Positions 22,014 through 62,241 of a DNA stretch of 64,000 nucleotides are shown piece after piece (position 1 is the stretch's first letter; each line of letters starts with the position of its first letter). The translations under genes were made by a program, and so were the position numbers. Source of the DNA: Alphaproteobacteria bacterium (GTDB lineage Bacteria > Pseudomonadota > Alphaproteobacteria > Rhizobiales > TMED25). The stretch is taken from positions 749,856-813,855 of the forward strand of contig JBJLFO010000001.1 in assembly GCA_045565315.1 (NCBI GenBank), in the 5' to 3' direction. A model generated the notes under the pieces. That model ran no database searches and was not told where the DNA came from. It saw nothing but the letters and a program-made list of their open reading frames with translations.

Positions 22014-23231
22014 CTAGTTATTCTTCTGATACTTTTCATTAATATAATTATACAGGATTTCTTTAAACTGACCTGAAATATTTTCTCCTCTAAGCGTCTT
22101 ATATTTCTCACCGTCAACAAATACTGGAGCCGCCGGTTGTTCTCCAGTACCTGGCAAAGAAATACCAATATTTGCATGCTTAGATTCACCCGGACCATTC
22201 ACTATACAACCCATCACCGCAATTTTAAGTGTGTCTATACCAACATAATTCTTTTTCCAAATTGGCATCTCTTGTTCAATGAAATTTTCTATATCAATTG
22301 CAAGCTCCTGAAAAACAGTAGATGTTGTTCTTCCGCATCCAGGGCAAGATGCAACATCAGGCCTATATGATTTTATATTCAGAGCCTGTAATATTTCTTT
22401 TGCTACTTTGACTTCCTCCACACGGTCACCATTTGGTTTAGGAGTGAGAGATACTCTTATAGTATCACCAATATTTTTATTTAATAAAATAGAAATAGCA
22501 GCTGCAGAGGATACAACTCCCTTTATCCCCATACCCGCCTCCGTTAAGCCAAGATGAAGAGCATAATCTGTTTGGCTAGCCAAGTCTTCATATACTTTGA
22601 TCAACTCACTAACATTACTTACTTTTGCTGATAATATAATTTTAGATCTCTCTAGACCAACTTCTGTTGCTCTTTCTGCTGATTTTATTACTGAACTAAC
22701 CAGAGAGTCACGTAGAACTTCAATTGAAGACTTTTTGATTTTCTGCTCATTATTCTTATTCATCATTATAGTGAGTAATTCTTGATCAATACTACCCCAA
22801 TTTGCTCCAATCCTGATTGGTTTATTATTTTTGCAAGCAATTTCAATTATCTCAGAAAATTGTTTATCTTTTTTATTTTTAAAACCAACATTACCTGGGT
22901 TTATTCTGTATTTATCAAGACTTTCTGCGCATGCGGGATAGTCTCTTAATAATTTATGTCCTATATAATGAAAATCTCCTACCAATCCAATTGAGTAATT
23001 TTTTTTCTCTAGAGATTCTCTTATATATGGAACCGCCTCAGCAGCCTCAGGTCTATCAACTGTTATTCTCACAATTTCCGATCCTTCCTCATAAAGATCA
23101 ATAATTTGTGCTACTGTTTTATTTATATCTGCAGTGTCAGTATTTGTCATAGACTGAACTACTATTGGGTTCTCACCACCAATTATAACGTTGCCAACCT
23201 TTACAGCTATGGAATTTCTTTTTGAAAGCAT
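22014..23231 (-). CDS. ispG: 4-hydroxy-3-methylbut-2-en-1-yl diphosphate synthase
   Basis: GcpE family; C-terminal Fe-S ligand contexts SCPGCGRT and [10 protein letters not shown] prefer ATG at 23231 over TTG at 23243. Confidence 0.95.
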
Positions 23232-23311
23232 TAAAATTACCAAAAAATATAGTTCAATATATAAATATATATGAATAAATGAATAAAAAAAATAAAATAC
23301 CGATAAAAATT

Positions 23312-23329
23312 ATCAATTTCTAAATTGAT
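23312..23329. repeat. 18-bp palindrome atcaattt-ct-aaattgat in the ispG/cbiX divergent intergenic region
   Basis: Read directly from the sequence; significance uncertain in AT-rich DNA. Confidence 0.2.
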
Positions 23330-23487
23330 TGATGGATATTTTTTCATTTTCTTTTAATATAAAATTATTGAGTATTACTTCGTTGTAATTAACACTCTAA
23401 TAACTGACCCAAATCGGGAGTTAAATTGAGACCTTTCATTGAATAGTTCTTTTATTTCCTCCATGAATAAATATAAGCAGGTAAAAA

Positions 23488-24507
23488 ATGTTATCTAAAA
23501 TTAAACTAAAGAAACTGGAAGACTATTTTTCTAAAGCGCCCGCAAGAAGAGGTATAATGCTGTGTGGTCATGGAAGTAGAAGTGAGGCTGCAGTCCATCA
23601 ATTTGCTGGGCTCGTTGATAAATTAAAAATGATTTTACCTCAAATACCTATTGAGTACGGATATCTTGAGTTTGCAAAGCCTATAATTAATGAAGGATTA
23701 GAAAAACTTAGAACAGAGGGTGTACGAGAAATAATTGCGATACCAGCGATGTTATTCGCTGCAGGCCACGCTAAAAATGATATACCATCAGTTCTTAATA
23801 GATACGTTGCCGATAATCCTGATATGAAGATTCAATATAGTAAAGAATTGGGTATTGATAATCTTATGATAAGGGCTGCAGCTGATAGGGTAACTGAGGC
23901 TATAGGTAGTTCAGATAATTTAATAGATAAGCATGATACTCTACTTTTGGTAGTTGGAAGGGGGGCCTCTGATCCAGATGCAAACTCTAATGTGACGAAA
24001 GTTACGAGATTGTTATGGGAAGGGATAGGTTTTGGCTGGGCGGAGACAGCATATTCAGGTGTAACATTTCCTCTTGTGGAGCCAGCATTAGAGAAGCTGA
24101 TTAATGTGGGTTATAAAAGGATAATTATTTTCCCATATTTCTTATTTACAGGAATCTTGATTGATAGAATTTATCAATCAGTTGATTTAATTTCTTCAAA
24201 ATATAGAGAAATTGAGTTTATCAAAGCACCTTATTTAAATGACCATCCTCTGGTAATTGAAACTTTTTGTGAGAGAATACTAAATGTAATTGATGGCGAA
24301 ATAAATATGAACTGTCAACTCTGCAAGTATAGAGAACAGGTGCTGGGTTTTGAGGATGAAGTTGGGCTAGCCCAGGAAAGCCATCATCATCATGTTGAGG
24401 GGGGGGCTCATAATCATCATAACCACAAACATGATCATGATCACACACACCATCACCCATATCCACATAGTGAGCATCCTTTAGGTCCTGTAACACTAAA
24501 GAAGTGA
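23488..24507 (+). CDS. cbiX: Sirohydrochlorin cobaltochelatase, long-form CbiX with MxCxxC motif and His-rich C-terminal tail
   Basis: Two CbiX-type half-domains (LCGHGSRS..., LLVVGRGASDPDAN...). MNCQLC motif at 24307..24324. Then 16 His in 32 residues at 24382..24477. First gene of the corrin cluster. Confidence 0.8.
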   Translation: MLSKIKLKKLEDYFSKAPARRGIMLCGHGSRSEAAVHQFAGLVDKLKMILPQIPIEYGYLEFAKPIINEGLEKLRTEGVREIIAIPAMLFAAGHAKNDIPSVLNRYVADNPDMKIQYSKELGIDNLMIRAAADRVTEAIGSSDNLIDKHDTLLLVVGRGASDPDANSNVTKVTRLLWEGIGFGWAETAYSGVTFPLVEPALEKLINVGYKRIIIFPYFLFTGILIDRIYQSVDLISSKYREIEFIKAPYLNDHPLVIETFCERILNVIDGEINMNCQLCKYREQVLGFEDEVGLAQESHHHHVEGGAHNHHNHKHDHDHTHHHPYPHSEHPLGPVTLKK

Positions 24508-24519
24508 TCATTAAGAGTT

Positions 24520-25155
24520 ATGCAAAATTATATCAAAGATCCAAATAAAATATATAAAAAATCCTTTGATATTATCTCATCTGAGGTAAACCTTGAAGCG
24601 TTTGATGATTATCACCAAAAATTGATTACTAGAGTTATTCATTCGTGTGGAGACACGTCAGTTATGGATGATTTATTTATATCAAAATATGCAATTTCTG
24701 AAGGCCTTAAATCTATTCGTTCAGATTGTAAAATCCTAACGGATAGTGAAATGGTTAGGGCTGGAATTATGAAAAAAAACCTACCAAGGAATAAAGTTGA
24801 ATGTTTTTTGAACAACAAAGATGTCCAAAGAATTGCTAGCATGTATAATACTACTCGCTCCGCAGCAGCGGTTAATTTATGGAAGAATTATATAAAGAAT
24901 TCTATTATCATTATTGGAAATGCTCCTACTGCTCTTTTTAGGCTCATTGAAATAATTAAAGAAAATAATTTTATTCCAAGTTTGATTATTGCCATGCCCC
25001 TAGGTTTTGTTGGTGCAGTTGAATCAAAAGAGGAACTGATCGATTTACATAATTCCTTAAATTTGAATATCATCACGATCCGTGGGAGAAGAGGAGGTAG
25101 TGCAATGGCTTGTGCGGCAATGAATGCGATTGGATTAATATATAATAATGAGTGA
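24520..25155 (+). CDS. cbiC: (Cobalt-)precorrin-8 methylmutase
   Basis: CbiC/CobH-like VIHSCGD and IIGNAPTALF motifs; 211 aa. Confidence 0.9.
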   Translation: MQNYIKDPNKIYKKSFDIISSEVNLEAFDDYHQKLITRVIHSCGDTSVMDDLFISKYAISEGLKSIRSDCKILTDSEMVRAGIMKKNLPRNKVECFLNNKDVQRIASMYNTTRSAAAVNLWKNYIKNSIIIIGNAPTALFRLIEIIKENNFIPSLIIAMPLGFVGAVESKEELIDLHNSLNLNIITIRGRRGGSAMACAAMNAIGLIYNNE

Positions 25156-26362
25156 AAAGATTAAATTAATCGGGATCGGTGATGATGGATTTGAGGGTCT
25201 CTCCAAAAAGGTTCAATCAATTATATTAGATGCTGAGATTATTATTGGTGGTTTACGACATCTGTCCATGCTTCCTGAGGTAGTAGCAAAAAAAATATCT
25301 TGGTCAAAAGATTTAAAGCAAGATATTAAAAAAATTAATGAATATAAATCGAAAAAAATATGCATTCTCGCAAGTGGAGACCCATTATTTTATGGTATTG
25401 GTAGATTATTATTAGAGCACTATTCAATCTCAGAAGTCGAAGTTATTCCTAGTCCGTCAAGTTTGTCTCTGTGTTGTGCAAGAATTGGATATAATATAAA
25501 AGATATTGAAGTCGTCTCTCTGCATGGTAGGGAATTTGATGATATTATTAAATACATTCAGCCAAATAATCGAATATTTGTTTTATCTCATGATAAAAGC
25601 ACCCCAAGTAGGATCATCGAGTTACTAAATACACTCAGATTTGAGGATAGCAATCTTTATATTTTCGAAAACATAGGTGGTGAGAATGAAACTATTACAA
25701 AGAAGAGAGTAAATGAACCTGTTAATGAAAAATTTTCGGATCTAAATTCTATTCTTATAGAGTGTATCTCCAATAAAGATTCAATTTATTATCCAAATTT
25801 TACTGGCATTGCTGATAAAGAATTCGAAAATGATGGACAAATTACTAAAAGTGAAATCAGGGCAATAACAATTTCTCAATTAGAGCCAATGGAAAAGTCA
25901 ATACTATGGGATATTGGAGGTGGATCAGGTTCAATTTCTATTGAATGGTCAAAAATTCATAAAAATACTACCATAAGCATTGTTGAAAAGAATAAAAAAC
26001 GTATTCAATTTATTAAAAATAATATTAAAAAATTTGGCATCAATAATATAACTATTATGGAAAATATAGCTCCGAAAATTTTGTATGATATGGATAGACC
26101 AAATAGGATTTTTATTGGAGGTGGTCTCTCAAATTTAGATGGCATGGAGATAATCCAAAAGTCAATAAATAGTCTGCTTCCATCTGGTATATTGGTTGCA
26201 AATGGAGTAACGACTGAAACTGAATTACTACTTTTCAATATTTATAAAAAATATGGAGGAGATTTATCAAAATACTCAACATCGAGTATAAAAAAAGTCG
26301 GGAACCTCCATGCGTGGGATCAAAAAATGCAAGTTACGCAGTGGAAGTATATAAAGAAATAG
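25148..26362 (+). CDS. cbiET: Fused CbiE-CbiT (CobL-type) (cobalt-)precorrin-6B C5,C15-methyltransferase/decarboxylase
   Basis: The N-terminal half is tetrapyrrole-methylase-like (LIGIGDDG, ILASGDPLFYG). The C-terminal half is a class I SAM methyltransferase (LWDIGGGSGSISIEW). Confidence 0.85.
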   Translation: MSEKIKLIGIGDDGFEGLSKKVQSIILDAEIIIGGLRHLSMLPEVVAKKISWSKDLKQDIKKINEYKSKKICILASGDPLFYGIGRLLLEHYSISEVEVIPSPSSLSLCCARIGYNIKDIEVVSLHGREFDDIIKYIQPNNRIFVLSHDKSTPSRIIELLNTLRFEDSNLYIFENIGGENETITKKRVNEPVNEKFSDLNSILIECISNKDSIYYPNFTGIADKEFENDGQITKSEIRAITISQLEPMEKSILWDIGGGSGSISIEWSKIHKNTTISIVEKNKKRIQFIKNNIKKFGINNITIMENIAPKILYDMDRPNRIFIGGGLSNLDGMEIIQKSINSLLPSGILVANGVTTETELLLFNIYKKYGGDLSKYSTSSIKKVGNLHAWDQKMQVTQWKYIKK

Positions 26363-26363
26363 T

Positions 26364-27056
26364 ATGGTTGGAAAAGTTTATGGAATAGGAGTTGGACCCG
26401 GGGATCCAAAGCTACTTACTGTTAGAGCTGCTGAGGTTATAGGGAGTCTAGATATACTTTTTTACCCAAGTTTTGGCAAGATTAATATGGCTCTTAATAT
26501 TGCAAAACCATATTTAAATAATAGAACCAAAAAAATAGAAATGAAGGTACCTCTCTCGCCACCAAAAGATAAATTTAAGGCTTATTATGAGTACTCTGGT
26601 AAAATAATGAGTTATTTAAATGAAGATAAAGATGTTGGAGTTTTATGTGAAGGCGATCCACTTTTTTTTGGATCATTCATAAATATTTGGCACAATATAC
26701 GAGATGAATTTAAAGTTGAAATAATACCAGGAATTTCATCAGTTATGTCAGCATTTAGTCAAATAGATGAATATATGGCAATAGGAGATGACTCTGTAAG
26801 TATAATAACAGCCAATGTGATTAATAAAGTTATTAAGGAAAAGATAAATTCATCAAATACAACAATTATAATTAAAATTGGAAATAAGTTTCAAAAAATA
26901 AATAAATTGATAGCTACAATGGGTTTATCAGATCATTCTATATTCCTGTCAAATATTTATAGTGAGCGACAATTTATTAGCAAGCTAAGCAAGATTAAAA
27001 ATAATCCTACGGATTATTTTTCAATAATAATAATAAAGAATAACAATGTTCATTAG
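26364..27056 (+). CDS. cbiL: (Cobalt-)precorrin-2 C20-methyltransferase
   Basis: YGIGVGPGDPKLLTVRA and CEGDPLFFGS tetrapyrrole-methylase motifs; 230 aa. Confidence 0.85.
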   Translation: MVGKVYGIGVGPGDPKLLTVRAAEVIGSLDILFYPSFGKINMALNIAKPYLNNRTKKIEMKVPLSPPKDKFKAYYEYSGKIMSYLNEDKDVGVLCEGDPLFFGSFINIWHNIRDEFKVEIIPGISSVMSAFSQIDEYMAIGDDSVSIITANVINKVIKEKINSSNTTIIIKIGNKFQKINKLIATMGLSDHSIFLSNIYSERQFISKLSKIKNNPTDYFSIIIIKNNNVH

Positions 27057-28844
27057 ATGAAATCTACACGTACAGTCATAATTATACTATCTGAAGCAAA
27101 TATTAAATTAGCACAGTCTATATCTGATAAGATAATAGGGAGTGAGATACACTCAATGAATATGAAATCAGATCAAATAAATTCTACATTTTCTAGTCTT
27201 TCAAAGCATTTAAGATCCTTACAAAAAGAAAAATGTCATATAATTGCAATATGCTCGATTGGAATTATCATAAGGTCACTAGATAGTAATTTTTTGCCAA
27301 AGAAAGATGGTTATCCAATAGTTGCCCTATCACCAGATGGAAAGTACGCTATCCCATTATTAGAGTCTCATTCTGGAGGGAATAAACTTGCTTTAGAGTT
27401 AGCTAATATTGTTAACTGCAAAGCGGTAATCACAACTTTAAGTGATGCAAAGCTAGAGATAGCATTAGATGATCCACCAAAAGGATATATTTTAAATCCA
27501 AAGTGCAATTATAAAGGCTTTATTTCAAGGTTATTAAAAGAAGGGTCTGTTAATAAATTACCTAGGCTCTCATGGCTACGTAAATCAAAAATAGAATTAT
27601 CAGATAAATCTGAATTAAAAATTGAAAGCTCAATCTATGTAGAGTCATTTAATAAAGATACAACACTTTTATACCATCCTCAAAAATTAGTGATTGGCGT
27701 GGGCTCAATTTCAGGAGCTAGAACCAATGTATTATACAAATTTATTATGCAAATATTACAAGACAATAATTTATCTATTCATTCTATTAGTGCCATTGCA
27801 ACAATAGATATAAAAAGAAACGAGATAGCTATAAAACAACTTGGTAAAAAACTTAAAAAACCAATATTATATTATAGTAGCACAGAATTAGAGAGTGTAT
27901 CGCATCAACTTCTATCACCATCGGAATATGTATATGATACAGTTGGATCTCATGGAGTTGCAGAACCTGCAGCTTTATTAGCCGCAGGAGAAGGATCAAA
28001 AATCATTGTTGCGAAACAAAAAATCTCAGAGGCAACCTGTTCTATTGTCTGTAGCCGAAGAATAAAAGATTTTTCATTAATTGAAGAGGGGGTTTTATCA
28101 ATCATAGGCCTTGGACCAGGTGATGAGAATTGGAGAACGCATGAAGTGGAAAATATAATAAAAAAGTCTACTCACTTAGTTGGATTTTCTGGTTATTTAA
28201 ATCAAATTAGAAAAACAAAAAATAAAAAATTTTTTCCATATGAAATAGGGCAAGAAGAAGATAGGGCAAAAAAAGCAATGGAACTCGCAAGTCAAGGAAA
28301 GAGCGTTGCTCTAGTTTGCTCTGGAGATCCTGGTATATATGCAATGGGTTCAGTGGTTTTTGAACTGATTGATAAAGGAGGGAAAAAATATAAAGATATA
28401 AATATTAATATAACTCCTAGTATTTCAGCTTTTCAAGCTGCATCTGCGAGGGTTGGAGCCCCATTTGGTAATGATTTCTGTATAATTTCATTATCAAATT
28501 TATTAACACCAGAGGAGGTAATAATGAATAGGTTATATTCAGCTTTAACAGCAGATTTTGTTATTGGTATTTATAATCCATCATCTCGCAAAAGAAAAAA
28601 ATTCTTTTTAGTAGCATTAGAAAAAATCAAAAAAAATAGATCTGGCGATACACCCATTGTAATTGCAAGAGATATTGGAAGGAAAAAAGAGAAAATTAGA
28701 TGTATAAAATTAAGAGATATTGACCCAAATGAAATTGATATGTTTACAATGCTAATCATTGGATCTCGTTCAACTAAGGAATATGAAGCAGCTGATTTGT
28801 CAAAAAGAGTATATACACCTCGAGGATATAACCTTGACTCATAA
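27057..28844 (+). CDS. cbiGH: Fusion protein: CbiG (cobalt-precorrin-5A hydrolase) N-terminal domain and CbiH/CobJ (precorrin-3B C17-methyltransferase) C-terminal domain
   Basis: Residues 1 to about 335 are CbiG-like (VIGVGSISGA..., HGVAEPAALLAAG). Residues from about 340 to 595 are tetrapyrrole methylase (LSIIGLGPGDENW, VCSGDPGIYAMGS). Confidence 0.85.
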   Translation: MKSTRTVIIILSEANIKLAQSISDKIIGSEIHSMNMKSDQINSTFSSLSKHLRSLQKEKCHIIAICSIGIIIRSLDSNFLPKKDGYPIVALSPDGKYAIPLLESHSGGNKLALELANIVNCKAVITTLSDAKLEIALDDPPKGYILNPKCNYKGFISRLLKEGSVNKLPRLSWLRKSKIELSDKSELKIESSIYVESFNKDTTLLYHPQKLVIGVGSISGARTNVLYKFIMQILQDNNLSIHSISAIATIDIKRNEIAIKQLGKKLKKPILYYSSTELESVSHQLLSPSEYVYDTVGSHGVAEPAALLAAGEGSKIIVAKQKISEATCSIVCSRRIKDFSLIEEGVLSIIGLGPGDENWRTHEVENIIKKSTHLVGFSGYLNQIRKTKNKKFFPYEIGQEEDRAKKAMELASQGKSVALVCSGDPGIYAMGSVVFELIDKGGKKYKDININITPSISAFQAASARVGAPFGNDFCIISLSNLLTPEEVIMNRLYSALTADFVIGIYNPSSRKRKKFFLVALEKIKKNRSGDTPIVIARDIGRKKEKIRCIKLRDIDPNEIDMFTMLIIGSRSTKEYEAADLSKRVYTPRGYNLDS

Positions 28845-28856
28845 GGGAATTTTTCC

Positions 28857-29612
28857 ATGAAAGTTTATTTTATTGGTGCGGGTCCTGGTGACCCTGAGTT
28901 ATTAACTTTAAAAGCACATAGGATAATAAGTAATATAGAACTTTGCCTATATGCTGGCTCTCTTGTTCCTGTAGAGATATTATCATTTGTTCCCAAAGGG
29001 GCAACTGTAGTGGATACCGCAAACCTAAATTTAAAAGAAATTGAAAGTTATTATATAAATGCTAAACAAGAAAATAAAGATGTAGCGAGGATACATTCAG
29101 GAGATGTAAGCGTTTACGGAGCACTTTCTGAGCAAATAGATATTTTGGATAAGCTAAATATTGAATATGAAATCATAGCAGGTATTCCAGCATATGTTCA
29201 AGCTGCAGCTATTCTTAATACGGAACTAACGATACCTGGTAAGGTTCAAAGTGTTATTTTGACAAGAACATCATTTAGTTCAACGCCCATGCCGGAAGGA
29301 GAAGATTTAGTAAATCTTGCAAAGACAGGATCCACGCTAGTAATTCATCTTTCAATAAGAAGAATGAAACATATCGCAAGAGAGTTATCTCCTATTATTG
29401 GTAATGATGCAATCGTTGCTGTTTTATATAGAATTGGTTGGTCAGATCAATTGGTCATAATAGACCGATTAGATAATATTGCAAAAAAGGTTAGGGAAAA
29501 TAAAATAACAAGGACGGCTTTAATTATTACTGGGAAAAATTTTAAAAAGAAATCAGAAATGAACTCTGTTTTATATGACTCTCATCATAATCATTTATTC
29601 CGACCTAAGTAA
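28857..29612 (+). CDS. cbiF: (Cobalt-)precorrin-4 C11-methyltransferase
   Basis: VYFIGAGPGDPELLTLKA and HSGDVSVYGA motifs; 251 aa. Confidence 0.9.
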   Translation: MKVYFIGAGPGDPELLTLKAHRIISNIELCLYAGSLVPVEILSFVPKGATVVDTANLNLKEIESYYINAKQENKDVARIHSGDVSVYGALSEQIDILDKLNIEYEIIAGIPAYVQAAAILNTELTIPGKVQSVILTRTSFSSTPMPEGEDLVNLAKTGSTLVIHLSIRRMKHIARELSPIIGNDAIVAVLYRIGWSDQLVIIDRLDNIAKKVRENKITRTALIITGKNFKKKSEMNSVLYDSHHNHLFRPK

Positions 29613-30337
29613 GAAAGTGTATCTTTCATCAGCACATCAATTTGAGAAGATTTTCTTGGAGTGTTCTCATTTCTATCTATCATAATTATTTCAATTCCGA
29701 GAATTCTAGCTGCTTCCACTTTGGCATAAGTTTCAATACTACCGCTATTTCTTGAGACTAAATGAGTAATTTTATTTTCTCGAAGAAGTATTAATTCTTG
29801 TGAGACATGGAACGGACCTCTCCCAGTAATATATTTTCTATTTCCCTGCGGTTGTGCAATATATGGGTCTATTGTTCTTATCATCAGCCATTGTTTGCAA
29901 TCAGAGAACAATGGTATATACTTTTTTCCTATTGTCAGGAATAAACGAGATTCGCGAGGTAGTGTCTCTACTATAGCTCTTGTATTATTAAAGCTATTTG
30001 TATGTACCCACTGATCGAAGTACTTTTTCTGCCATTCAGGTCTATGCAGAATGAATAGTTTAATTTTCAATTCTCTCGCGGCAAGTTTAACGTTATTTGA
30101 AATTTGGGTTGAGTATGGGTGCGAAGCATCAATTATAATATTTATACAGTTGTTATTTAAATAGTTTTTTAACCCATCTATTCCTCCAAATCCACCTGAC
30201 CTTGTAACATAATTAACTTGTCGTGGTTGGAGGGTATTACCCTGGAGCGATAATACTGACGAATAATTATTTTCATTTAAAGAAGAGGCTATCTTGAATC
30301 CCTCTGCTGTTCCTCCTATTATTAGTATCTTATGCAT
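29591..30337 (-). CDS. cbiJ: (Cobalt-)precorrin-6A reductase
   Basis: CobK/CbiJ-like: ILIIGGTAEG N-terminus, about 250 aa, downstream of cbiD with an 8-nt overlap. Confidence 0.85.
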   Translation of the reverse strand: MHKILIIGGTAEGFKIASSLNENNYSSVLSLQGNTLQPRQVNYVTRSGGFGGIDGLKNYLNNNCINIIIDASHPYSTQISNNVKLAARELKIKLFILHRPEWQKKYFDQWVHTNSFNNTRAIVETLPRESRLFLTIGKKYIPLFSDCKQWLMIRTIDPYIAQPQGNRKYITGRGPFHVSQELILLRENKITHLVSRNSGSIETYAKVEAARILGIEIIMIDRNENTPRKSSQIDVLMKDTLSYLGRNK

Positions 30338-31418
30338 ATCTAATATCAGTTTGAGCTAAGATTTCTTCTTTTCTGTCAATGATCATCACATCTATACCAA
30401 TTTGGGTTTGTTTGAGCATATTTAAAATTTGGTCTTGCGCCATTTTTGCAATACTAAGTGATAAGTCGTATTTTATATCTCCTAGTATTTCAAGACATTG
30501 GTTAGCAGTTGTTATTCTTTTGATATCTTTAAATTTTTCCCCATCAATTTTTAATTCCTTTATATGCTCAATAAGCGATAACAAATCAACCTGACTTCTG
30601 CTTGAGTGAAGGTCCATTGAGCCTTGAGATAATTTTACAAGCTTGGCAAACCCCCCAGCTATGGTTATTCTAGGGACAGTATTTTTTTTTAAATACTTTA
30701 ACAATCCTCCAACAAAATCTCCCATATCAATCATAGCTTGATCTGGAAGTTCAAAATAATTTTGGGTTACCTTCTCTGATATCGAGCCTGTACATGCAGC
30801 AATATGAAGTAAGTTTGTTTTCTTTGCAACATCAACGCCCCGGTGGATAGAGTGTATCCAAGCGGCGCAAGAAAAAGGAATAACTATGCCGGTGGTTCCA
30901 AGAATTGATATTCCATTCTGTATTCCCAATCTTGTATTCCAAGTCTTCTTAGCAATTTCATATCCCTCGGGCACTTCAATAGTAATATTCACTTCAAGTT
31001 TTACACTATTTTGTATTGCGACTTCTTGAAGTGTATCTATGATCATTTTTCTTGGTCCAGGGTTTATTGCCGGCTCACCAACATCCAGTGGAAGACCGGG
31101 AAGGGTTACAGTGCCGACACCATTACCCGCAAAAAATTTTACTCCATTATTTTCATGACACGTTTCAACTTTTGAAATTATAAGTATTCCATTTGTTACA
31201 TCTGGGTCATCCCCAGCATCCTTGATTATTCCTGCACTGACTGATTGATGATTTACATCTTGATATGCTATAGTAAAAGTCGGACTTTGGCCATTTGGTA
31301 GCGTGATTGTAATTTTATCAGGGCATATACCTGTTAGAAGCCCTATATAAGCAGCTTTAGATGCTGCTGTTGCGCATGCACCGGTTGTCCAACCTCTGCG
31401 TAATTTTTTTTTTAACAT
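30330..31418 (-). CDS. cbiD: Cobalt-precorrin-5B (C1)-methyltransferase
   Basis: LRRGWTTGACATAASKAA N-terminal signature of CbiD. Confidence 0.9.
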   Translation of the reverse strand: MLKKKLRRGWTTGACATAASKAAYIGLLTGICPDKITITLPNGQSPTFTIAYQDVNHQSVSAGIIKDAGDDPDVTNGILIISKVETCHENNGVKFFAGNGVGTVTLPGLPLDVGEPAINPGPRKMIIDTLQEVAIQNSVKLEVNITIEVPEGYEIAKKTWNTRLGIQNGISILGTTGIVIPFSCAAWIHSIHRGVDVAKKTNLLHIAACTGSISEKVTQNYFELPDQAMIDMGDFVGGLLKYLKKNTVPRITIAGGFAKLVKLSQGSMDLHSSRSQVDLLSLIEHIKELKIDGEKFKDIKRITTANQCLEILGDIKYDLSLSIAKMAQDQILNMLKQTQIGIDVMIIDRKEEILAQTDIRYA

Positions 31419-31428
31419 ATGAACAATA

Positions 31429-31445
31429 ATAAATTTAAAATTTAT
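31429..31445. repeat. 17-bp A/T-only palindrome ataaattt-a-aaatttat centred in the 29-bp cbiD/cobA divergent gap
   Basis: Read directly from the sequence. Confidence 0.25.
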
Positions 31446-31447
31446 AA

Positions 31448-32242
31448 ATGCAAATATTCGATAAACTTAATTTACCTGAATTCAAAAAAGGAGAGGTGTG
31501 GCTCGTTGGAGCTGGCCCCGGAGACCCAAGGCTACTGACAATATTTGCCTTATATGCTCTATCAGAGGCTAATATTATTATATATGATGCGCTAGTCTCA
31601 GACGAAATATTATCCTTATCCTCTAGGAATGCAACACTTGTATATGCTGGGAAGAGAGGTGGAAAGCCATCCCACTCTCAAGAAAACATATCTGAACTAG
31701 TTATTAAATATTCTTTAGAAGGTAAAAAAGTTCTAAGATTAAAAGGGGGGGATCCTTATGTATTTGCAAGAGGCGCTGAGGAATCATTCAAATTAAATGA
31801 GAATAAAATATCATATAGAGTTATTCCTGGGATAACCTCTTCTATTGGAGGAATGGCTTCAGCATCAATTCCTGCAACTTCTAGAAATACTAATTCTTGT
31901 ATTTTATTCCTTACGGGTCATAACTCGAATGGAGAAGTGCCTGATGATATTGATTGGGCAGCTGTTTCAAAGATACCCGTCGTTGTGATGTATATGGCTC
32001 TGAAGCACCTTCCTGTCATAATTAAAAGGCTTATATTGGAGGGAAAAAAGAAGGATGAGCCAATAGCAATAATTCAAGATGCTACTCTGGTAAGTCAAAA
32101 AGTATTGGAGTCAAAACTAAGTGATGTCAATAAAGATATAGAAAAATATAATATAAAATCCCCTGCAATTATTATCTTAGGTCCAGTTGTTGATTTACGC
32201 TCAAAGTTAATTGAGAATGTGATAAAAGATGCCATCACTTAG
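31448..32242 (+). CDS. cobA: Uroporphyrinogen-III C-methyltransferase (SUMT only; no dehydrogenase/chelatase domain)
   Basis: VWLVGAGPGDPRLLT and RLKGGDPYVFARGAEE motifs. At 264 aa it has no CysG N-terminal domain. Confidence 0.9.
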   Translation: MQIFDKLNLPEFKKGEVWLVGAGPGDPRLLTIFALYALSEANIIIYDALVSDEILSLSSRNATLVYAGKRGGKPSHSQENISELVIKYSLEGKKVLRLKGGDPYVFARGAEESFKLNENKISYRVIPGITSSIGGMASASIPATSRNTNSCILFLTGHNSNGEVPDDIDWAAVSKIPVVVMYMALKHLPVIIKRLILEGKKKDEPIAIIQDATLVSQKVLESKLSDVNKDIEKYNIKSPAIIILGPVVDLRSKLIENVIKDAIT

Positions 32243-33539
32243 TTTGTGTATATCCGCTGCAATGACAGGAAGTGGTAAGACTATATTTACATCTGCACTA
32301 ATCAATACATTATTAAAAAAAGGTTATTCTATATCCGCTGGTAAAGTCGGCCCTGATTACATAGATCCTACATATTCAAGATCCCTGACTAAAAGGGATG
32401 TATTCAATTTTGATACGTGGGCTATGAATGAAAACACTCTGGATAATTTAATGGTAGAGTCTTCTAATGCTGCCGACTTCCAAATATTTGAGGGTGTAAT
32501 GGGATTATTTGATGGCACAAGTAACCAGCAGTCATCCACTGCAAGCTTTGTAAAGAAATATAAAATACCGGTATTATTAGTAATTGATGCCACATCACAA
32601 TCTCAAACTCTTGCAGCAATCTGTAAAGGGCTGATGAGTTACGACCCTGAGGTTGATTTTATAGGGGTTGTTCTTAATAAGGTTGCAAGCGAAAGGCATT
32701 TTTTGCTTATTGATGAAGAGCTAAAAAAAAATAATATAAATGTTATTGGATATTTACCTACAACTCCTGATTTGGTTTTTCCAAGGCGTCATTTAGGTTT
32801 ACATTTAGCACATCAAATAAATGAATATAAATCACTTATAGATAAAGCCTCAGCTGTAGTAATGAGTAATATTAAAATTGATCAAATTTTATCGTTAGCT
32901 AAACCACTAAAGGATATAAGGCCAAAAAAAGATTTGCCATCTCCTATCAATTTAGGACAAAAAATTTCAATTGCCAGAGATGAAGCTTTTTCATTTATAT
33001 ATGACCACACTCTCTATCAATGGCAAAAAGAAGGAAGAGAACTCAAATTCTTCTCACCACTAAATGATGAATCACCTGATAAAAGTTCTACCGGCATATA
33101 TTTACCAGGTGGATATCCAGAACTTCATTGTGAAACGATATCGAAAAATAAAAAATTTTTAGAATCAATGAATAAAGCTCGGATTGAAAATAAAATAATA
33201 TATGGTGAGTGTGGGGGATATATGGTACTTGGAGAGTCGATCTTCAATAATAAAAATAAAGAATATAAAATGCTAGGTTTTTTAGATCTAATAACAAGTT
33301 TTCATGAAAGGAAATTGAACCTTGGTTATAGAAAAGTCAGTGCAAATCATAAATGCAAATATTTTGATAGGAAATTATTTCTTACAGGTCATGAGTATCA
33401 CTATTCAACCATTATCAAAGAAAAAGGGGAACCTCTTTTTTTGGAAAAAGAAAAAACTTTAAGTACTAATGGATATGGTTTAATTAAGAAAAACGTTTTC
33501 GGCTCATTTTTGCACTTAATAGATCAAAAATTAAAATAG
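32229..33539 (+). CDS. cbiA: Cobyrinate a,c-diamide synthase
   Basis: N-terminal nucleotide-binding motif AAMTGSGKT and C-terminal glutamine amidotransferase Cys context YGECGGYMVLG. Confidence 0.9.
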   Translation: MPSLSLCISAAMTGSGKTIFTSALINTLLKKGYSISAGKVGPDYIDPTYSRSLTKRDVFNFDTWAMNENTLDNLMVESSNAADFQIFEGVMGLFDGTSNQQSSTASFVKKYKIPVLLVIDATSQSQTLAAICKGLMSYDPEVDFIGVVLNKVASERHFLLIDEELKKNNINVIGYLPTTPDLVFPRRHLGLHLAHQINEYKSLIDKASAVVMSNIKIDQILSLAKPLKDIRPKKDLPSPINLGQKISIARDEAFSFIYDHTLYQWQKEGRELKFFSPLNDESPDKSSTGIYLPGGYPELHCETISKNKKFLESMNKARIENKIIYGECGGYMVLGESIFNNKNKEYKMLGFLDLITSFHERKLNLGYRKVSANHKCKYFDRKLFLTGHEYHYSTIIKEKGEPLFLEKEKTLSTNGYGLIKKNVFGSFLHLIDQKLK

Positions 33540-33551
33540 GGGAGTTAATAA

Positions 33552-34085
33552 ATGATATATGAATACCAAGGTAAAAGACCGCAAATACATGAAAATTGTT
33601 GGGTAGCATCAAATGCAGTTCTCATTGGAGATGTTATTTTAGAAGAAGAAACAAGTATTTGGTGGAATGCAGTCTTAAGAGGGGATAATGAACCAATAAC
33701 TATCGGTAAAGGTTCTAATATACAAGATGGTTCAGTAGCTCATACAGATCCTGGCTATGGACTCACAATTGGACAAAATGTCACAGTTGGTCATATGGCA
33801 ATGATCCATGGTTGTACTATAGGAGATAACTCATTAGTTGGAATTGGGGCTATCATCCTAAATGGAGCAAAAATTGGTAAAGGGTGTTTGATTGGGGCAA
33901 ATTCATTTATTCCCGAAAAGAGAGAAATACCTGATAACTCAATAGTACTTGGGGCCCCAGGAAAAGTGATTGGTGATGTTCAGGATAAACATAAAGCTAT
34001 GATGAAAAGAGCTCAAGGTAGCTATGTTAAAAGATCATATTTATATAAATCAGAGCTTGTGGAAATTACTTCTGAAGTTTTATAG
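33552..34085 (+). CDS. Gamma-class carbonic anhydrase-like / hexapeptide-repeat (YrdA/PaaY/CaiE) family protein
   Basis: Left-handed beta-helix hexapeptide repeats. Three conserved His contexts: SVAHTD, VGHMAM, IHGCTIG. A GGGGAG Shine-Dalgarno lies in the 12-nt gap after cbiA. Confidence 0.85.
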   Translation: MIYEYQGKRPQIHENCWVASNAVLIGDVILEEETSIWWNAVLRGDNEPITIGKGSNIQDGSVAHTDPGYGLTIGQNVTVGHMAMIHGCTIGDNSLVGIGAIILNGAKIGKGCLIGANSFIPEKREIPDNSIVLGAPGKVIGDVQDKHKAMMKRAQGSYVKRSYLYKSELVEITSEVL

Positions 34086-34171
34086 TATTATTATGGATTG
34101 AACTTTATCTAATTTTATTATAATAATATTAAATAGATCTGTTGATATTATGAAATAAAAAGGAGATAGGC

Positions 34172-34390
34172 ATGAATAACAAATTAGTAATGGGAGCAAT
34201 TGTTGCTGTTGTTGTTGCAGTAGCGGCTTATTTTATTATGACCAACGCTGGAAAAGATAACACTGGGTCTTCCTCTACAGGTGGCGCTCTTATGAGAACA
34301 AACCAAACTGATGAACCTGTGGTTGTTGGAAGTAAAACTGTTGAAATCGAAATGCTTGATGAATTTGCAACATACGGGCAAGCTTTCTAA
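34172..34390 (+). CDS. Small (72 aa) single-pass membrane protein, unknown function
   Basis: AGGAG Shine-Dalgarno ending 6 nt upstream of the ATG. N-terminal helix GAIVAVVVAVAAYFIM followed by a Gly/Ser/Thr-rich linker. Two hairpins follow. No family recognised. Confidence 0.55.
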   Translation: MNNKLVMGAIVAVVVAVAAYFIMTNAGKDNTGSSSTGGALMRTNQTDEPVVVGSKTVEIEMLDEFATYGQAF

Positions 34391-34401
34391 GTGCTATATC
34401 G

Positions 34402-34421
34402 TTGCTATTTTTACATAGCAA
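34402..34421 (+). terminator. Hairpin ttgctat-ttttac-atagcaa immediately after the small ORF
   Basis: 7-bp perfect stem read from the sequence; no U-tract of its own. Confidence 0.3.
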
Positions 34422-34436
34422 GTCATCAAAATAAAG

Positions 34437-34458
34437 AAGGGCTAATTTAGCCCTTTTT
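34437..34458 (+). terminator. Candidate Rho-independent terminator aagggct-aattt-agccctt followed by ttt
   Basis: 7-bp stem that is G+C-rich for this genome, 5-nt loop, T-run after the stem. It ends the cob/gamma-CA/small-ORF unit before zapE. Confidence 0.55.
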
Positions 34459-34536
34459 CCTATAAATTGAACTATTTGCTTGTTTTACTCTAATTTCTAT
34501 AAGAAATCATAATTACCTCTTGAATATAGCCAAATA

Positions 34537-35655
34537 ATGAATATTGATATTGATAAGAATTTTGATCAATTACTTAAAGATAAACAAATAGAATATGATC
34601 AAAAGCAGTATGATTTAGTAAAAGTTCTCGTTCAGAAGAATAAAATATTTCATAAATTTACTTACAAAAGTTCAATTCTTGAAAAACTCAGAATAAGCAA
34701 ACGGACTCCACCAAAAGGCATGTATATATATGGTCAAGTTGGAAGAGGTAAATCAATGCTAATGGATTTATTCTTTGACAGCATTAATATTAAAGAAAAA
34801 AGAAGGGTTCACTTTAATGAGTTTATGAATGAAGTGCATGAGGAGATATTCAAATGGCGTGAAAAGAATAAATTACAACCATCTAAAGAGGAGGATAAAG
34901 ATCCAATTTTAATGGTTGCAAAGTTAGTTAAAAAACAATGCAAACTATTATGTTTTGATGAGTTTCAAGTTGAAGATATTGCAGATGCAATGATTTTAGG
35001 TAGGCTATTTAAAATACTTTTTGATATGAAAATATTAATTATAGCTACGTCTAATATACATCCTAGAGATCTATATTCTGAAGGGCTGAATCGCGATACG
35101 TTTCTTCCATTTATAGATATTCTAGAAGAAAATATGGAAATATATCATCTCGATGCTGAGAAAGATTATAGGATAGATAGATTGAGGGACCAAACAGTTT
35201 ATTTTTCGCCAAATAATAAAATCAATCGTATTAACTACAACGAAGCTTGGCAAAAGCTTAAGGGTAGTATAGAAGTTATAAATAAGATCCTAAAAGTAAA
35301 GGGTAGAGATTTAATTATTCCGAATTCTGCTGGAAAATATGTAAAATTTACCTATGATGAATTATGTATAAAGCCGTTAGGTGTAGCTGACTATTTAGAA
35401 ATATCAAAAAATTTTAATGTGATCTTTATTTCAGAGATACCAAAAATGAATGTAAAAAAAAGGAATGAAATAAAAAGGTTTATTAATTTAGTCGATACAT
35501 TATATGAAGCGAGAAGTATTTTATTCATTTTAGCAGATTCTCCAGCAAAAGATTTACTGGATGGAGGTAAGGATGCTAAAATCTTTCAAAGAACAGTATC
35601 TCGGTTGGAGGAAATGCAATCTGCAGATTATCTGAATAATATAATCAAGCAATAA
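34537..35655 (+). CDS. zapE: AFG1-like ATPase / cell division factor ZapE
   Basis: Walker A GQVGRGKSMLMD and Walker B LLCFDEFQV. The position upstream of mdh is common in Alphaproteobacteria. Confidence 0.85.
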   Translation: MNIDIDKNFDQLLKDKQIEYDQKQYDLVKVLVQKNKIFHKFTYKSSILEKLRISKRTPPKGMYIYGQVGRGKSMLMDLFFDSINIKEKRRVHFNEFMNEVHEEIFKWREKNKLQPSKEEDKDPILMVAKLVKKQCKLLCFDEFQVEDIADAMILGRLFKILFDMKILIIATSNIHPRDLYSEGLNRDTFLPFIDILEENMEIYHLDAEKDYRIDRLRDQTVYFSPNNKINRINYNEAWQKLKGSIEVINKILKVKGRDLIIPNSAGKYVKFTYDELCIKPLGVADYLEISKNFNVIFISEIPKMNVKKRNEIKRFINLVDTLYEARSILFILADSPAKDLLDGGKDAKIFQRTVSRLEEMQSADYLNNIIKQ

Positions 35656-38717: not shown

Positions 38718-39710
38718 CTACGAATTATCCGATACAAGCCTAAGATGATTTTCTTTATTTCTTGGGTGAGCTTTTTTATGAATATCTAGTAGCTCTGTTT
38801 GATTTACTTTTGTGTACATTTGAGTTGTTGAAAGGCTCGCATGACCGAGTAGCTCTTGAATTGATCTTAAGTCTACACCTGCCTGTAAAAGATGAGTTGC
38901 ATAAGAATGTCTTAGTGAATGTGGTGTTGCATTTTTAGGTAGACTCAGATTACTCCTCATTTTCTGCATTATGATTTGAACAATCCGAGGACTGAGTCTA
39001 TCTCCTTTAACACCAATAAAAAGTGGGTCTTTTAAATTATATTTCTTTGGGTATAAATCTAAATATTTTTTAATACCATCTTTTATATCAGGGAGTATTG
39101 GAATCTCTCGATATTTATTACCTTTTCCTCTGACTCTAATAGTATCCTGCCAGTCTTCCATTGGCGCATCATTTATATTCAGCTCCAAAGCTTCACTTAC
39201 CCTCAAACCACATCCATATAAGAGCAGAAAAATTGAAGTATTTCTTGCCTCAACCCATCCAGCTTTACTCTTTGGATTCTTATTATTATCATTCGATATC
39301 ACATCTTTTGCTTGTTCCAAAGAGAGTGGTTTCGGAATACTTTGTGGTAATTTTGGCATACGAATATGATTTAAGGCATTATTCTTCAAGATATCAATTT
39401 TATCTAAATATTCAAATAGTGATCTAATACTAGACATAACTCTTGCGATCGTTTTCGAGCAATTACCATCTCTTCTTTTTTTCGCCATAAAAGCACGAAA
39501 GTCAGCAGCAACTAAATTCTCAAGATTTTTAATTGAGAGTGGTCCACCAATATGATCAATCAAAAAATTTATAAAAGCATCAATATCTCGATAATAGGCA
39601 TCAATAGTATTTGGTGAGACTCTTTTTTCATTTTTGATAAATTCAATCCAAGAATTTAGAGCAAGATTCAATTCGTCTTTTACTAAATTTATTTCGTATA
39701 CTTTATTCAT
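38718..39710 (-). CDS. Tyrosine recombinase, XerC/XerD family
   Basis: N-terminal SAM-like domain (RVSPNTIDAYYRDIDAFINFL). Catalytic contexts GLRVSEAL, HSLRHSYATHLL, LGHASLSTTQMYTKV. Confidence 0.8.
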   Translation of the reverse strand: MNKVYEINLVKDELNLALNSWIEFIKNEKRVSPNTIDAYYRDIDAFINFLIDHIGGPLSIKNLENLVAADFRAFMAKKRRDGNCSKTIARVMSSIRSLFEYLDKIDILKNNALNHIRMPKLPQSIPKPLSLEQAKDVISNDNNKNPKSKAGWVEARNTSIFLLLYGCGLRVSEALELNINDAPMEDWQDTIRVRGKGNKYREIPILPDIKDGIKKYLDLYPKKYNLKDPLFIGVKGDRLSPRIVQIIMQKMRSNLSLPKNATPHSLRHSYATHLLQAGVDLRSIQELLGHASLSTTQMYTKVNQTELLDIHKKAHPRNKENHLRLVSDNS

Positions 39711-58304: not shown

Positions 58305-58853
58305 ATGTTAGAAATAAATAAGGAATTTATAAAAAAATTTCAAATCAATAAAGATCGTAAAGATTTTGAGGTTATCTTTAGGTACTACGCGCCAAGAATA
58401 AAATCTTTATTGATAAAGGGAGGGGCAGACTCAGCACAAGCTGAGGACATTATGCACGATACTATGATAAATGTTTGGGAGAAACTTCATATGTATAATT
58501 CTGAAAAAGGTTCATTTAGTTCATGGATTTTCACAATTGCAAGAAATAATAGAATTGATTTATTAAGAAAAAAATCATCAAAGCCATACACAGATATCTA
58601 TGAGATAGAGATAGCTTCTGAAAAAGATAATGGGCAGGATATTGCCGAACAAAAATCACTATCACAGCAAGTAAAAAATGCTATAAATCTTCTCCCTTCA
58701 AAACAAAAAAAAGTTATTGAACTCTCGTTCATGAATGACATGACCCAAGATGAAATTGCATCCAAACTTGATATTCCAATCGGTACAGTGAAATCAAGAA
58801 TGCGTTTAGCTTATCAAAAAATAAAAGATAATTTAAAGGAAATTACAGTATGA
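58305..58853 (+). CDS. rpoE: ECF-type RNA polymerase sigma factor (ChrR-partnered, RpoE-like)
   Basis: Region 2 (SWIFTIARNNRIDLLRK) and region 4 (MTQDEIASKLDIPIGTVKSRMRLA). ATGA overlap with the anti-sigma gene. Confidence 0.9.
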   Translation: MLEINKEFIKKFQINKDRKDFEVIFRYYAPRIKSLLIKGGADSAQAEDIMHDTMINVWEKLHMYNSEKGSFSSWIFTIARNNRIDLLRKKSSKPYTDIYEIEIASEKDNGQDIAEQKSLSQQVKNAINLLPSKQKKVIELSFMNDMTQDEIASKLDIPIGTVKSRMRLAYQKIKDNLKEITV

Positions 58854-59506
58854 AACATCACCCAGACCCAGCAACATTATTAGAATACGCAAGCGGTACT
58901 TTGAGCACACCATTCTCTATTCTAGTATCAGCGCACATTGAGACTTGTCATGAGTCCAAACAAATAGTTAAGGTAGGTGAAGAGATAGGCGGCGACTATA
59001 TAGATAACATTGAACCGAACGAAGAACAGACAATCGATTACAGCGCCTTTCTAAAAAAACTTGATAGCAATGAACTAAAAAATAAGAATAAAAAACATAA
59101 ATATAATTACGACCGAAAATCAGTCATACCTTCAGTACTCCAACCATATATCGGGCAAAATTTTAATAATATTGATTGGTCATTTTTAGCTTTTGGTATT
59201 AAAAAATATCAAGTCAATATTGATAATGATCCAAGTAACTCACTTACATTCTTAAAAATCAAGCCAAAAAAGAAAATACCAGCTCACGGACATACAGGAC
59301 GTGAAATGACCCTTGTGCTGCAAGGCTCATTCGATGATGAACATGGATCTTATGCAGCTGGTGATATTGCGGAACATGATGGTGTTGAAACACATCAGCC
59401 TATTGTATCCTCAGATGAAGATTGCATTTGTATTATATCTACAGAAGGTCCGTTGATATTTAATAATTATCTTGCAAATAAGCTACAATCACTCATTCGT
59501 ATTTAG
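58850..59506 (+). CDS. chrR: ChrR-type anti-sigma factor (N-terminal anti-sigma domain and C-terminal cupin)
   Basis: The N-terminus KHHPDPATLLEYASGTLSTPFSILVSAHIETCHES aligns with R. sphaeroides ChrR as I recall it. The C-terminal cupin carries HGHTGREMT...THQP ligands. Confidence 0.85.
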   Translation: MKHHPDPATLLEYASGTLSTPFSILVSAHIETCHESKQIVKVGEEIGGDYIDNIEPNEEQTIDYSAFLKKLDSNELKNKNKKHKYNYDRKSVIPSVLQPYIGQNFNNIDWSFLAFGIKKYQVNIDNDPSNSLTFLKIKPKKKIPAHGHTGREMTLVLQGSFDDEHGSYAAGDIAEHDGVETHQPIVSSDEDCICIISTEGPLIFNNYLANKLQSLIRI

Positions 59507-60280: not shown

Positions 60281-60285
60281 ATAAA

Positions 60286-61440: not shown

Positions 61441-61444
61441 TTAA

Positions 61445-62218: not shown

Positions 62219-62241
62219 GATACGTATAGATAAATTCAGTA

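Follow-up and report, generated by a model that had tools for sequence, protein, structure and literature searches.

We analysed a 64-kb stretch of a contig from a marine alphaproteobacterium (JBJLFO010000001.1, positions 749,856 to 813,855), which we refer to as the window, and in particular a block of genes for construction of the corrin ring of vitamin B12. Coordinates are positions in the window unless another locus is named. Genes were called from Pfam and NCBIfam profile matches, judged against the cut-offs of the families. The block (23488-33539) consists of ten intact open reading frames (ORFs) that encode twelve enzyme domains in three transcription units. The first forward unit comprises cbiX, cbiC, a fused cbiE-cbiT, cbiL, a fused cbiG-cbiH and cbiF; the reverse unit comprises cbiD and then cbiJ; and the second forward unit comprises cobA and cbiA. 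All ten gene identities and the three-unit layout proposed in the initial annotation were recovered at the same positions. That annotation counted eleven genes, and the eleventh in the span (33552-34085) is in fact a member of the gamma-carbonic-anhydrase family. Together, the ten genes cover every type of ring-stage enzyme from uroporphyrinogen III to cobyrinate a,c-diamide, with the exception of precorrin-2 dehydrogenase.

An AT-rich intergenic region of 244 bp (23244-23487), presumed to contain a promoter, separates ispG on the reverse strand from cbiX on the forward strand. The cbiX gene (23488-24507, forward) encodes a long-form class II sirohydrochlorin chelatase of 339 aa with two domains (Pfam CbiX, 171.8 bits). 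It is followed by cbiC/cobH (24520-25155, forward; (cobalt-)precorrin-8 methylmutase, 211 aa; Pfam, 219 bits) and by the cobL-like cbiE-cbiT fusion (25148-26362, forward), which encodes a C5,C15-methyltransferase/decarboxylase of 404 aa. Both halves of this protein score above cut-off (TIGR02467, 175.4 bits, residues 7-202; TIGR02469, 108.4 bits, residues 231-354). Next are cbiL/cobI (26364-27056, forward; C20-methyltransferase, 230 aa; TIGR01467, 178.3 bits, cut-off 163) and the cbiG-cbiH fusion (27057-28844, forward; 595 aa). The latter joins a full-length CbiG with N- and C-terminal domains (approximately residues 5-335) to the C17-methyltransferase/ring-contraction enzyme (residues 345-593; TIGR01466, 259.5 bits, cut-off 246). 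PF11760 and PF01890 cover residues 51-330 of the CbiG part, and NF004466 matches residues 5-331 with 154 bits, below its equivalog cut-off of 326. The unit ends with cbiF/cobM (28857-29612, forward; C11-methyltransferase, 251 aa; TIGR01465, 281.7 bits, cut-off 260).

The reverse unit encodes CbiD (30330-31418, reverse), a C1-methyltransferase of 362 aa identified well above cut-off (TIGR00312, 397.7 bits, cut-off 200) and also above that of NF000849 (443.5 bits), and CbiJ/CobK (29591-30337, reverse), a (cobalt-)precorrin-6A reductase of 248 aa (PF02571, 182 bits; NF005968, 219.9 bits, slightly below the cut-off of 231). The second forward unit begins with cobA (31448-32242, forward), which encodes a uroporphyrinogen-III C-methyltransferase (SUMT) of 264 aa (TIGR01469, 260 bits, cut-off 185, residues 15-251). 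As first annotated, this is a stand-alone enzyme, with no CysG N-terminal (dehydrogenase/chelatase) domain in the Pfam and NCBIfam matches. The final ring-stage enzyme, cobyrinate a,c-diamide synthase (436 aa; NF002204, 438.8 bits, cut-off 254), is encoded by cbiA/cobB (32229-33539, forward). Gene packing is tight: cbiC and cbiET overlap by 8 bp, as do cbiD and cbiJ, and the convergent 3' ends of cbiF and cbiJ overlap by 22 bp. The divergent start codons of cbiD and cobA are 29 bp apart (31419-31447), with identical spacing in L014, a diverged relative described below. Either both promoters lie within the neighbouring coding sequences or transcription of the units proceeds differently.

CbiX is the class II sirohydrochlorin chelatase encoded with the ring genes, and cbiX stands first in the operon in every copy of the block examined. 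Histidines of the N-terminal domain (in GHGSR and AAGHAK) are conserved and align with those of Bacillus SirB. The protein also carries an MNCQLC (MxCxxC) Fe-S motif and a His-rich C-terminal tail, reading ...INMNCQLCKY... and then ESHHHHVEGGAHNHHNHKHDHDHTHHHPYPHSEHP. Two fused domains, a C-terminal MxCxxC motif and a histidine-rich region are the hallmarks of the long form, as in Bacillus megaterium CbiXL. The last two are described, in an account cited by a later review, as features of that cobaltochelatase (Leech et al., 2003, cited in PMC7242693). The metal is putatively cobalt. CbiX is the most conserved product of the block, with 65-71% identity to distant relatives versus 29-55% for the other nine. 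It matches more than 8000 database clusters at E ≤ 1e-10, and the best 120 of these are mostly at about 60% identity or higher. The high conservation could reflect strong constraint or separate gene flow.

The closest solved structures to CbiC are the CobH proteins of Brucella and Pseudomonas denitrificans. In the PDB search the CbiH domain matches Rhodobacter capsulatus CobJ (3nut), and the CbiG half matches a CbiG homologue (3eeq) and CobE (2w6k/2w6l). Scores to R. capsulatus CobJ and CobM and to Brucella/P. denitrificans CobH exceed those to B. megaterium CbiF. By sequence kinship, the backbone of the ring enzymes is proteobacterial, with the "Cbi" character limited to the route markers.

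Public protein records place the organism under the names "PS1 clade bacterium" (taxid 2175152), "Rhodobiaceae bacterium" and "Alphaproteobacteria bacterium". These names, and the marine, AT-rich nature of the group, bear out the description of the host as an AT-rich alphaproteobacterium. The DNA of the cluster shows zero differences from contig NHCE01000005.1 of GCA_002168075.1. The exact CbiD sequence occurs in 236 blocks of the public collection, including a 1.42-Mb contig and marine metagenome assemblies. When GTDB species representatives were scanned with CbiG-CbiH, the sole match was a Brassicibacter locus of 37% identity; no PS1 genome was retrieved, although metagenome-assembled genomes (MAGs) of this lineage are available from NCBI. 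Low-complexity, lysine-rich peptide patterns from an AT-rich protein may account for this.

The composition of the block, a comparison proposed in the initial annotation, is that of its surroundings: GC content is 0.332 versus 0.339 for the whole window, and the tetranucleotide correlation between block and rest of window (0.82-0.88) is inside the range between other window segments. Gene order and the junctions with ispG and the gamma-carbonic-anhydrase gene are the same in six independent assemblies. The arrangement sdh-ispA-panCB-ispG, then the block, then the gamma-carbonic-anhydrase gene is identical in two PS1 sublineages, L028 (GCA_029245795.1) and L014, whose ring proteins are 65-84% and 50-75% identical to those of the window, respectively. 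A chimeric contig, which would have undermined the earlier interpretation, is contradicted by these six assemblies and two diverged sublineages. The block is not a horizontally acquired island either: its composition is that of the flanks, no tRNA gene was found in the window, and the junctions are the same in three PS1 sublineages.

Between the window and L014, synonymous differences are saturated (pS 0.71-0.79), pN is 0.13-0.32, and dN/dS is at most 0.17 wherever computable. All ORFs are intact in both. Intact ORFs and purifying selection across saturated synonymous divergence argue against decay. By these comparisons the block appears to be a long-maintained, functional module, vertically inherited under purifying selection. 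Two differences were seen in L002, from the same population: cbiX (L002 16935-17930) is called 8 aa shorter, with many codons differing from the window, and panB (L002 19414-20229) is split into ORFs of 96 and 162 aa. Errors of assembly or sequencing are the probable cause, with real variants a possibility.

Nearly all window ORFs of at least 100 aa were scanned with Pfam; sdhA/sdhB, priA, atpA/atpD and short overlapping ORFs were left out, and the larger of these were identified otherwise or by position. The survey was extended 10 kb past each window end, to a total of 84 kb. Over this distance we did not identify CobN, CobS, CobT, CobG, CobZ, CobF or SirC/CysG-N. Also lacking are CobO, CobQ, CbiB, CobD, CobU/S/T/C, BluB and any known cobalt transporter. 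The absences first reported for the window (CobG/CobZ, CobF, CobNST, precorrin-2 dehydrogenase and the late-step genes) therefore stand, and extend to both 10-kb flanks. The largest window ORF is 722 aa (PriA), so CobN cannot fit. For precorrin-3B synthase, the window and flanks contain no ORF of NIR_SIR or CobZ type, in contrast to a marine lineage of about 37% GC (L024, below), in which cobG follows cobN. A His_Phos_1 protein in the 10-kb flank was considered as CobC and rejected, as it is SixA-like.

No Rfam family reached its gathering threshold anywhere in the window. A cobalamin riboswitch (RF00174) was not found at E ≤ 10 in 22900-34700, nor was one found in L014, L015, L017, L019, L028 or L035. 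The positive control, the AT-rich locus L024, gave 70.4 bits. A promoter and terminator scan showed no enrichment over shuffled sequences.

The gene content expected for early cobalt insertion is present in the form of CbiX, full-length CbiG and CbiD in place of CobF, and lacks precorrin-2 dehydrogenase. That expected for the oxygen-dependent route is missing from the window, which has no CobG/CobZ, no CobF and no CobN/CobS/CobT. The assignment to an oxygen-independent, early-insertion route was originally made on these grounds. The positive markers stand; the argument from missing CobNST is weaker, as it applies to the window only and cobN lies beside the block in relatives.

The same ring block was identified in three more distant relatives: L017 (49% GC), L116 (a 5.3-Mb contig) and L117. 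CbiX of L017 and L116 shares 66-71% identity with that of the window. The cbiG-cbiH fusion is kept in all three, as it is in L014 and L028. In L017 and L116 the block runs straight into cbiB. In L017 this is followed on the opposite strand by cobQ-cobO-cobN-cobW-cobU; in L116, cobU-cobW-cobN-cobO lies upstream of the block. No cobN occurs within 10 kb of the block in L117, and no CobG, CobZ or CobF is encoded beside the block in any of the three. Thus CobN, absent from 84 kb around the block here, is nevertheless a neighbour of the same block in L017 and L116. L017 also encodes, between cbiB and cobQ (L017 10993-11859, reverse), a 288-aa NAD-binding dehydrogenase of the 3-hydroxyisobutyrate/2-hydroxy-3-oxopropionate reductase family that is absent from L019.

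A single annotated cluster on the Ralstonia solanacearum megaplasmid (CP023017.1) encodes HoxN, ferredoxin, CobN, ChlID, CbiE, a CbiX-containing ORF, CbiD, CbiG, CbiH, CobW, CobO and BluB. Cultured bacteria thus do combine CbiX, CbiG and CbiD with CobN. As an indicator of the route CbiD is ambiguous too: Pseudomonas aeruginosa has CobG and carries CbiD in place of CobF. Judged by architecture and relatives, the block belongs to a group of proteobacterial clusters that mix Cbi-type markers with CobN/CobW, and its assignment to early cobalt insertion is only partly secure. Metal-free ring contraction needs CobG or CobZ, and contraction without either of them is known for cobalt-bound intermediates only (PMC7242693). 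For this reason we keep CbiX-dependent early insertion as the most likely route.

Genes for the late steps were sought through CbiB. A first search, from L015, was set aside; GC-rich Rhizobiales-like proteins alone were listed. The CbiB that follows the block in L015 and L017 was used as seed, and 50%-identity representatives included several AT-rich CbiB proteins. Members of one such cluster (P0400) bear the names "Rhodobiaceae bacterium" and "Hyphomicrobiales bacterium", which are also used for PS1 sublineages. The contigs of P0400 (L019-L023, 31% GC; e.g., GCA_018701025.1) carry a late cluster consisting of cobS, then cobT-cobD-cbiB, with cobQ-cobO-cobN-cobW-cobU on the opposite strand. This is the order of the late half of L017. 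A Tara contig of 31% GC, L035, represents a second AT-rich lineage with the same late cluster, and by gene order and ORF sizes its neighbours seem to be those of L019. Proteins of L035 and L019 are 43-79% identical, a spread that resembles that of the ring genes between the window and L014. CobN is 1240 aa long in L019, which also has cobW, and only the 3' end of cobN is present on L035. L019 CobN and CobO are 48% and 68-69% identical to those neighbouring CbiX blocks, versus 32-34% and 58% to those of a CobG-type lineage. BluB was not seen in the window, its flanks or these AT-rich loci. Among the matches listed in a metagenome scan were L035 and an AT-rich contig, L114, that looks like a different lineage. 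These late clusters fit a PS1-like genome in which an ancestral supercluster has been split into a ring half and a late half.

Two CbiB searches returned no CbiB of the window lineage, and their word-based prefilter would miss one. The 48%-identical AT-rich CbiB of L035 shares 14 five-residue words with the query, at the bottom of the scored range. We therefore rejected the absence of CbiB as evidence of loss, the prefilter being blind to such divergence. Cluster P0445, a further AT-rich CbiB candidate, proved to belong to an unrelated CobG-type lineage.

Another marine lineage, of about 37% GC, encodes cobT, cbiB, cobD, cobQ and cobO (L024 8897-20972; also L025-L027). A cobalamin riboswitch (L024 14050-14246) is followed there by DUF1636-cobW-cobN-cobG-cobH-cobI. 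The CbiB cluster of this type contains 1125 member sequences. This is the classical oxygen-dependent pathway, in an organism that looks very abundant.

We consider it probable, at roughly 60%, that the block forms the functioning corrin-ring part of a cobamide (vitamin B12) pathway, vertically inherited in a marine alphaproteobacterium of the PS1 clade. CobA would make precorrin-2, whose oxidation to sirohydrochlorin would be spontaneous in this aerobe or catalysed by an enzyme from another locus. Long-form CbiX, with its Fe-S motif and His-rich tail, would then insert cobalt, and CbiA would amidate the product. Adenosylation, cobyric acid synthesis and assembly of the nucleotide loop would be carried out from a separate locus to complete the cobamide. 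Such a locus would resemble the cobS / cobT-cobD-cbiB / cobQ-cobO-cobN-cobW-cobU cluster of the related AT-rich marine lineages.

Several observations weigh against this reading. The first concern the metal. The solved structures nearest to CbiX are those of ferrochelatases (Bacillus SirB 5zt7/6jv6, E ~1e-27 in a PDB sequence search), and the same review cites an alphaproteobacterial CbiX that serves as a siroheme ferrochelatase (Bali et al., 2014, cited in PMC7242693). Among the ring enzymes, the methyltransferases and mutase have their best scores against Cob enzymes of the metal-free pathway from Rhodobacter, Brucella and Pseudomonas. Two of the three distant relatives have cobU-cobW-cobN-cobO within a few kb of the block, and the presence of cobN-cobW there means that insertion of the corrin cobalt by CbiX is not assured. 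The second concern missing steps. A precorrin-2 dehydrogenase (SirC, CysG-N or Met8p-type) lies beside the block in none of the six contexts (window, L014, L017, L028, L116 and L117). Precorrin-2 is air-sensitive; the enzyme may be encoded elsewhere, or oxidation in this aerobe may need no dedicated enzyme. We could link none of the late genes to this genome, and MAGs with the L019-type CbiB carry NCBI accession series distinct from those of the window lineage. Tetranucleotide correlations do not discriminate, at 0.75-0.89 within the genome, 0.75-0.84 to L019 and L035 and 0.74-0.81 to the unrelated L024.

Some of these points would fit a rival reading in which the block is not a purely oxygen-independent Cbi route. 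The genome may also encode cobN and cobW elsewhere, together with cobS/cobT or chlID. CobN would then insert cobalt, or both chelatases would be used, with CbiX serving some other purpose, such as insertion of siroheme iron or metal buffering. Given the clusters of L017 and L116, the cobN of the AT-rich late clusters L019 and L035 and the Ralstonia megaplasmid, where CobN, ChlID and CobW join CbiX, CbiD and CbiG, we regard this as a real but tentative possibility, to which we would give about one chance in four. It would also suit the separate evolutionary behaviour of CbiX (65-71% versus 29-55% identity), the kinship of CbiX with SirB ferrochelatases and that of the ring enzymes with Cob-type structures. 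Yet no copy of the block has cobG, cobZ or cobF next to it, and one of the first two is needed for contraction of a metal-free ring (PMC7242693). The only defined task of full-length CbiG is on the cobalt-bound lactone. In addition, cbiX heads the operon in every copy, MxCxxC and the His-rich tail are features of CbiXL and not of SirB, and cobN has not been tied to the genome of the window.

A module for the ring alone, in a genome with no late genes, is a doubtful alternative. The lineage would make cobyrinate a,c-diamide or a related early corrinoid for completion by others in the community, or else the genes would be a remnant in the course of being lost. The lack of a late gene in 84 kb and of a window-lineage CbiB in both searches would be expected in this case, but an AT-rich CbiB at 48% identity was beyond the reach of those searches. 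None of the ten genes is disrupted and all are under purifying selection, and in relatives the block is joined directly to late genes. We know of no use of cobyrinate diamide alone. A recently acquired island or an assembly chimera is very improbable: although CbiX is 65-71% similar to sequences from GC-richer alphaproteobacteria and an integrase-family gene lies 4.6 kb downstream, that gene is XerC/D-like and in the same place in L001-L005, GC content and tetranucleotide usage are those of the flanks, the window lacks tRNA genes, and the same ispG and gamma-carbonic-anhydrase junctions occur in six assemblies and in two sublineages with ring proteins 50-84% identical.

Among the characterized systems close to the block is the cbi operon of B. 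megaterium with its long CbiX, described in the review as an early-cobalt-insertion route (Moore et al., 2013, reviewed in PMC7242693). By gene content, the dehydrogenase apart, the block works in the manner of this route. Both have one set of enzymes in common (long CbiX, CbiL, CbiH, CbiF, full CbiG, CbiD, CbiJ, CbiE/T, CbiC and CbiA), and they share the two-domain layout of CbiX, its MxCxxC motif and its His-rich C-terminus. In Bacillus, too, the cbi operon does not include precorrin-2 dehydrogenase. There are also differences. In the window, CbiG is fused to CbiH and CbiE to CbiT, and CbiH lacks the additional domain at the C-terminus of B. megaterium CbiH60. The methyltransferases and mutase resemble proteobacterial Cob enzymes more than those of the Bacillus Cbi set, a B12 riboswitch was not found, and the host is an aerobic alphaproteobacterium.

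The Ralstonia megaplasmid cluster likewise has CbiX, CbiD, CbiG and CbiH together, with no CobG or CobF in the cluster. It also has CobN, ChlID, the cobalt transporter HoxN, CobW, CobO and BluB, none of which is encoded in the window. Its CbiX lies in a 532-aa ORF, and identity to the window proteins is 25-40%. With the Cob pathway of P. denitrificans and R. capsulatus, the window shares orthologues of CobA, CobI, CobJ, CobM, CobK, CobL, CobH and CobB. Unlike the classical Cob pathway, it has CbiX, CbiD and full-length CbiG (rather than the short CobE), and no CobG/CobZ, CobF or CobNST.

The Paracoccus CbiX, reportedly a siroheme-forming ferrochelatase (Bali et al., 2014, cited in PMC7242693), is similar in being alphaproteobacterial, annotated as CbiX and partnered by a stand-alone SUMT. 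The label "CbiX" is therefore no guarantee of cobalt. A PDB search with CbiX from the window gave no Paracoccus-labelled match at E ≤ 0.001, so the two are at most distant relatives. The Paracoccus gene is reportedly found in a context of nitrate or sulfate assimilation, whereas the window gene heads a corrin operon.

The gene that follows cbiA (33552-34085, forward) encodes a hexapeptide-repeat protein of 177 aa from the gamma-carbonic-anhydrase family (NF050158, 190 bits, below the cut-off of 250). A gap of 12 bp separates it from cbiA, and the two genes are probably co-transcribed. The gene is present after cbiA in L014 and L028 (82-86% identity), where it is more conserved than most ring genes, and was not found after cbiA in the non-PS1 relatives L017, L116 and L117. 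A B12-related role for this ORF was dropped in view of its family and its absence after cbiA outside PS1 lineages. Also conserved after it in the window, L014 and L028 is a 72-aa ORF (34172-34390, forward) with an N-terminal hydrophobic helix and the C-terminus GSKTVEIE[ML]LDEFATYGQ, for which Pfam has no record.

Housekeeping genes make up both flanks. The upstream flank contains leuCD, leuB, asd, sdhCDAB, ispA, panC, panB and ispG. Genes downstream encode an AFG1-like ATPase, mdh, sucCD, a XerC/D-type recombinase, tal, priA and atpHAGDC, and farther downstream are obg, proB, proA and an ECF sigma/ChrR pair with its neighbours. The recombinase gene (38718-39710, reverse), between sucD and tal, is of the phage-integrase family with the XerC/D domain layout. 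It is at the same place in L001-L005 and is not an island border. At 58305-63546 we identified an ECF sigma factor and a ChrR-type anti-sigma factor (Cupin_7), and beside them a short-chain dehydrogenase, a cyclopropane-fatty-acid-synthase-like methyltransferase, DUF1365 and an amine-oxidase-type flavoprotein. These genes agree with the earlier suggestion of a singlet-oxygen regulon in the region.

The enzymes of the block are ordinary and already correctly named in public MAG records, and the pathway type is known; what is new is the host. In the literature searched we found no paper linking the PS1 clade to B12 synthesis, and one match used "PS1" for Thioglobaceae. Synthesis of B12 had been thought rare among AT-rich marine alphaproteobacteria. 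This is weakened by the four AT-rich lineages with the ring block, two with a late cluster, and by the abundant lineage of about 37% GC with CobG and CobN.

The block also bears on how such pathways are classified. A label of "anaerobic" or "aerobic" taken from the markers of one window is unreliable in Proteobacteria, because in relatives this CbiX/CbiG/CbiD block is accompanied by cobN and cobW. A further, speculative proposal, which we hold to be rather unlikely, is that the PS1 clade is an overlooked de novo producer of B12 in the surface ocean by a biochemically unresolved, proteobacterial mixed-marker route. The parts of that route would be a long CbiX, a CbiG-CbiH fusion, CbiD, no dedicated precorrin-2 dehydrogenase or riboswitch and possibly a second cobalt system of CobN and CobW. 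In the strongest form of this idea, if true, two chelatases with distinct, non-redundant roles would constitute a third pathway organisation beside the "aerobic" and "anaerobic" ones.

Many marine algae and bacteria are limited by vitamin B12, and the list of accepted producers in the ocean is short: Rhodobacterales, some Gammaproteobacteria, Thaumarchaeota and cyanobacteria, the last of which make pseudocobalamin. Ring genes of the PS1 clade, a widespread AT-rich marine group, occur in hundreds of metagenome assemblies. If these bacteria finish the pathway, a cosmopolitan, small-celled producer would join the list.

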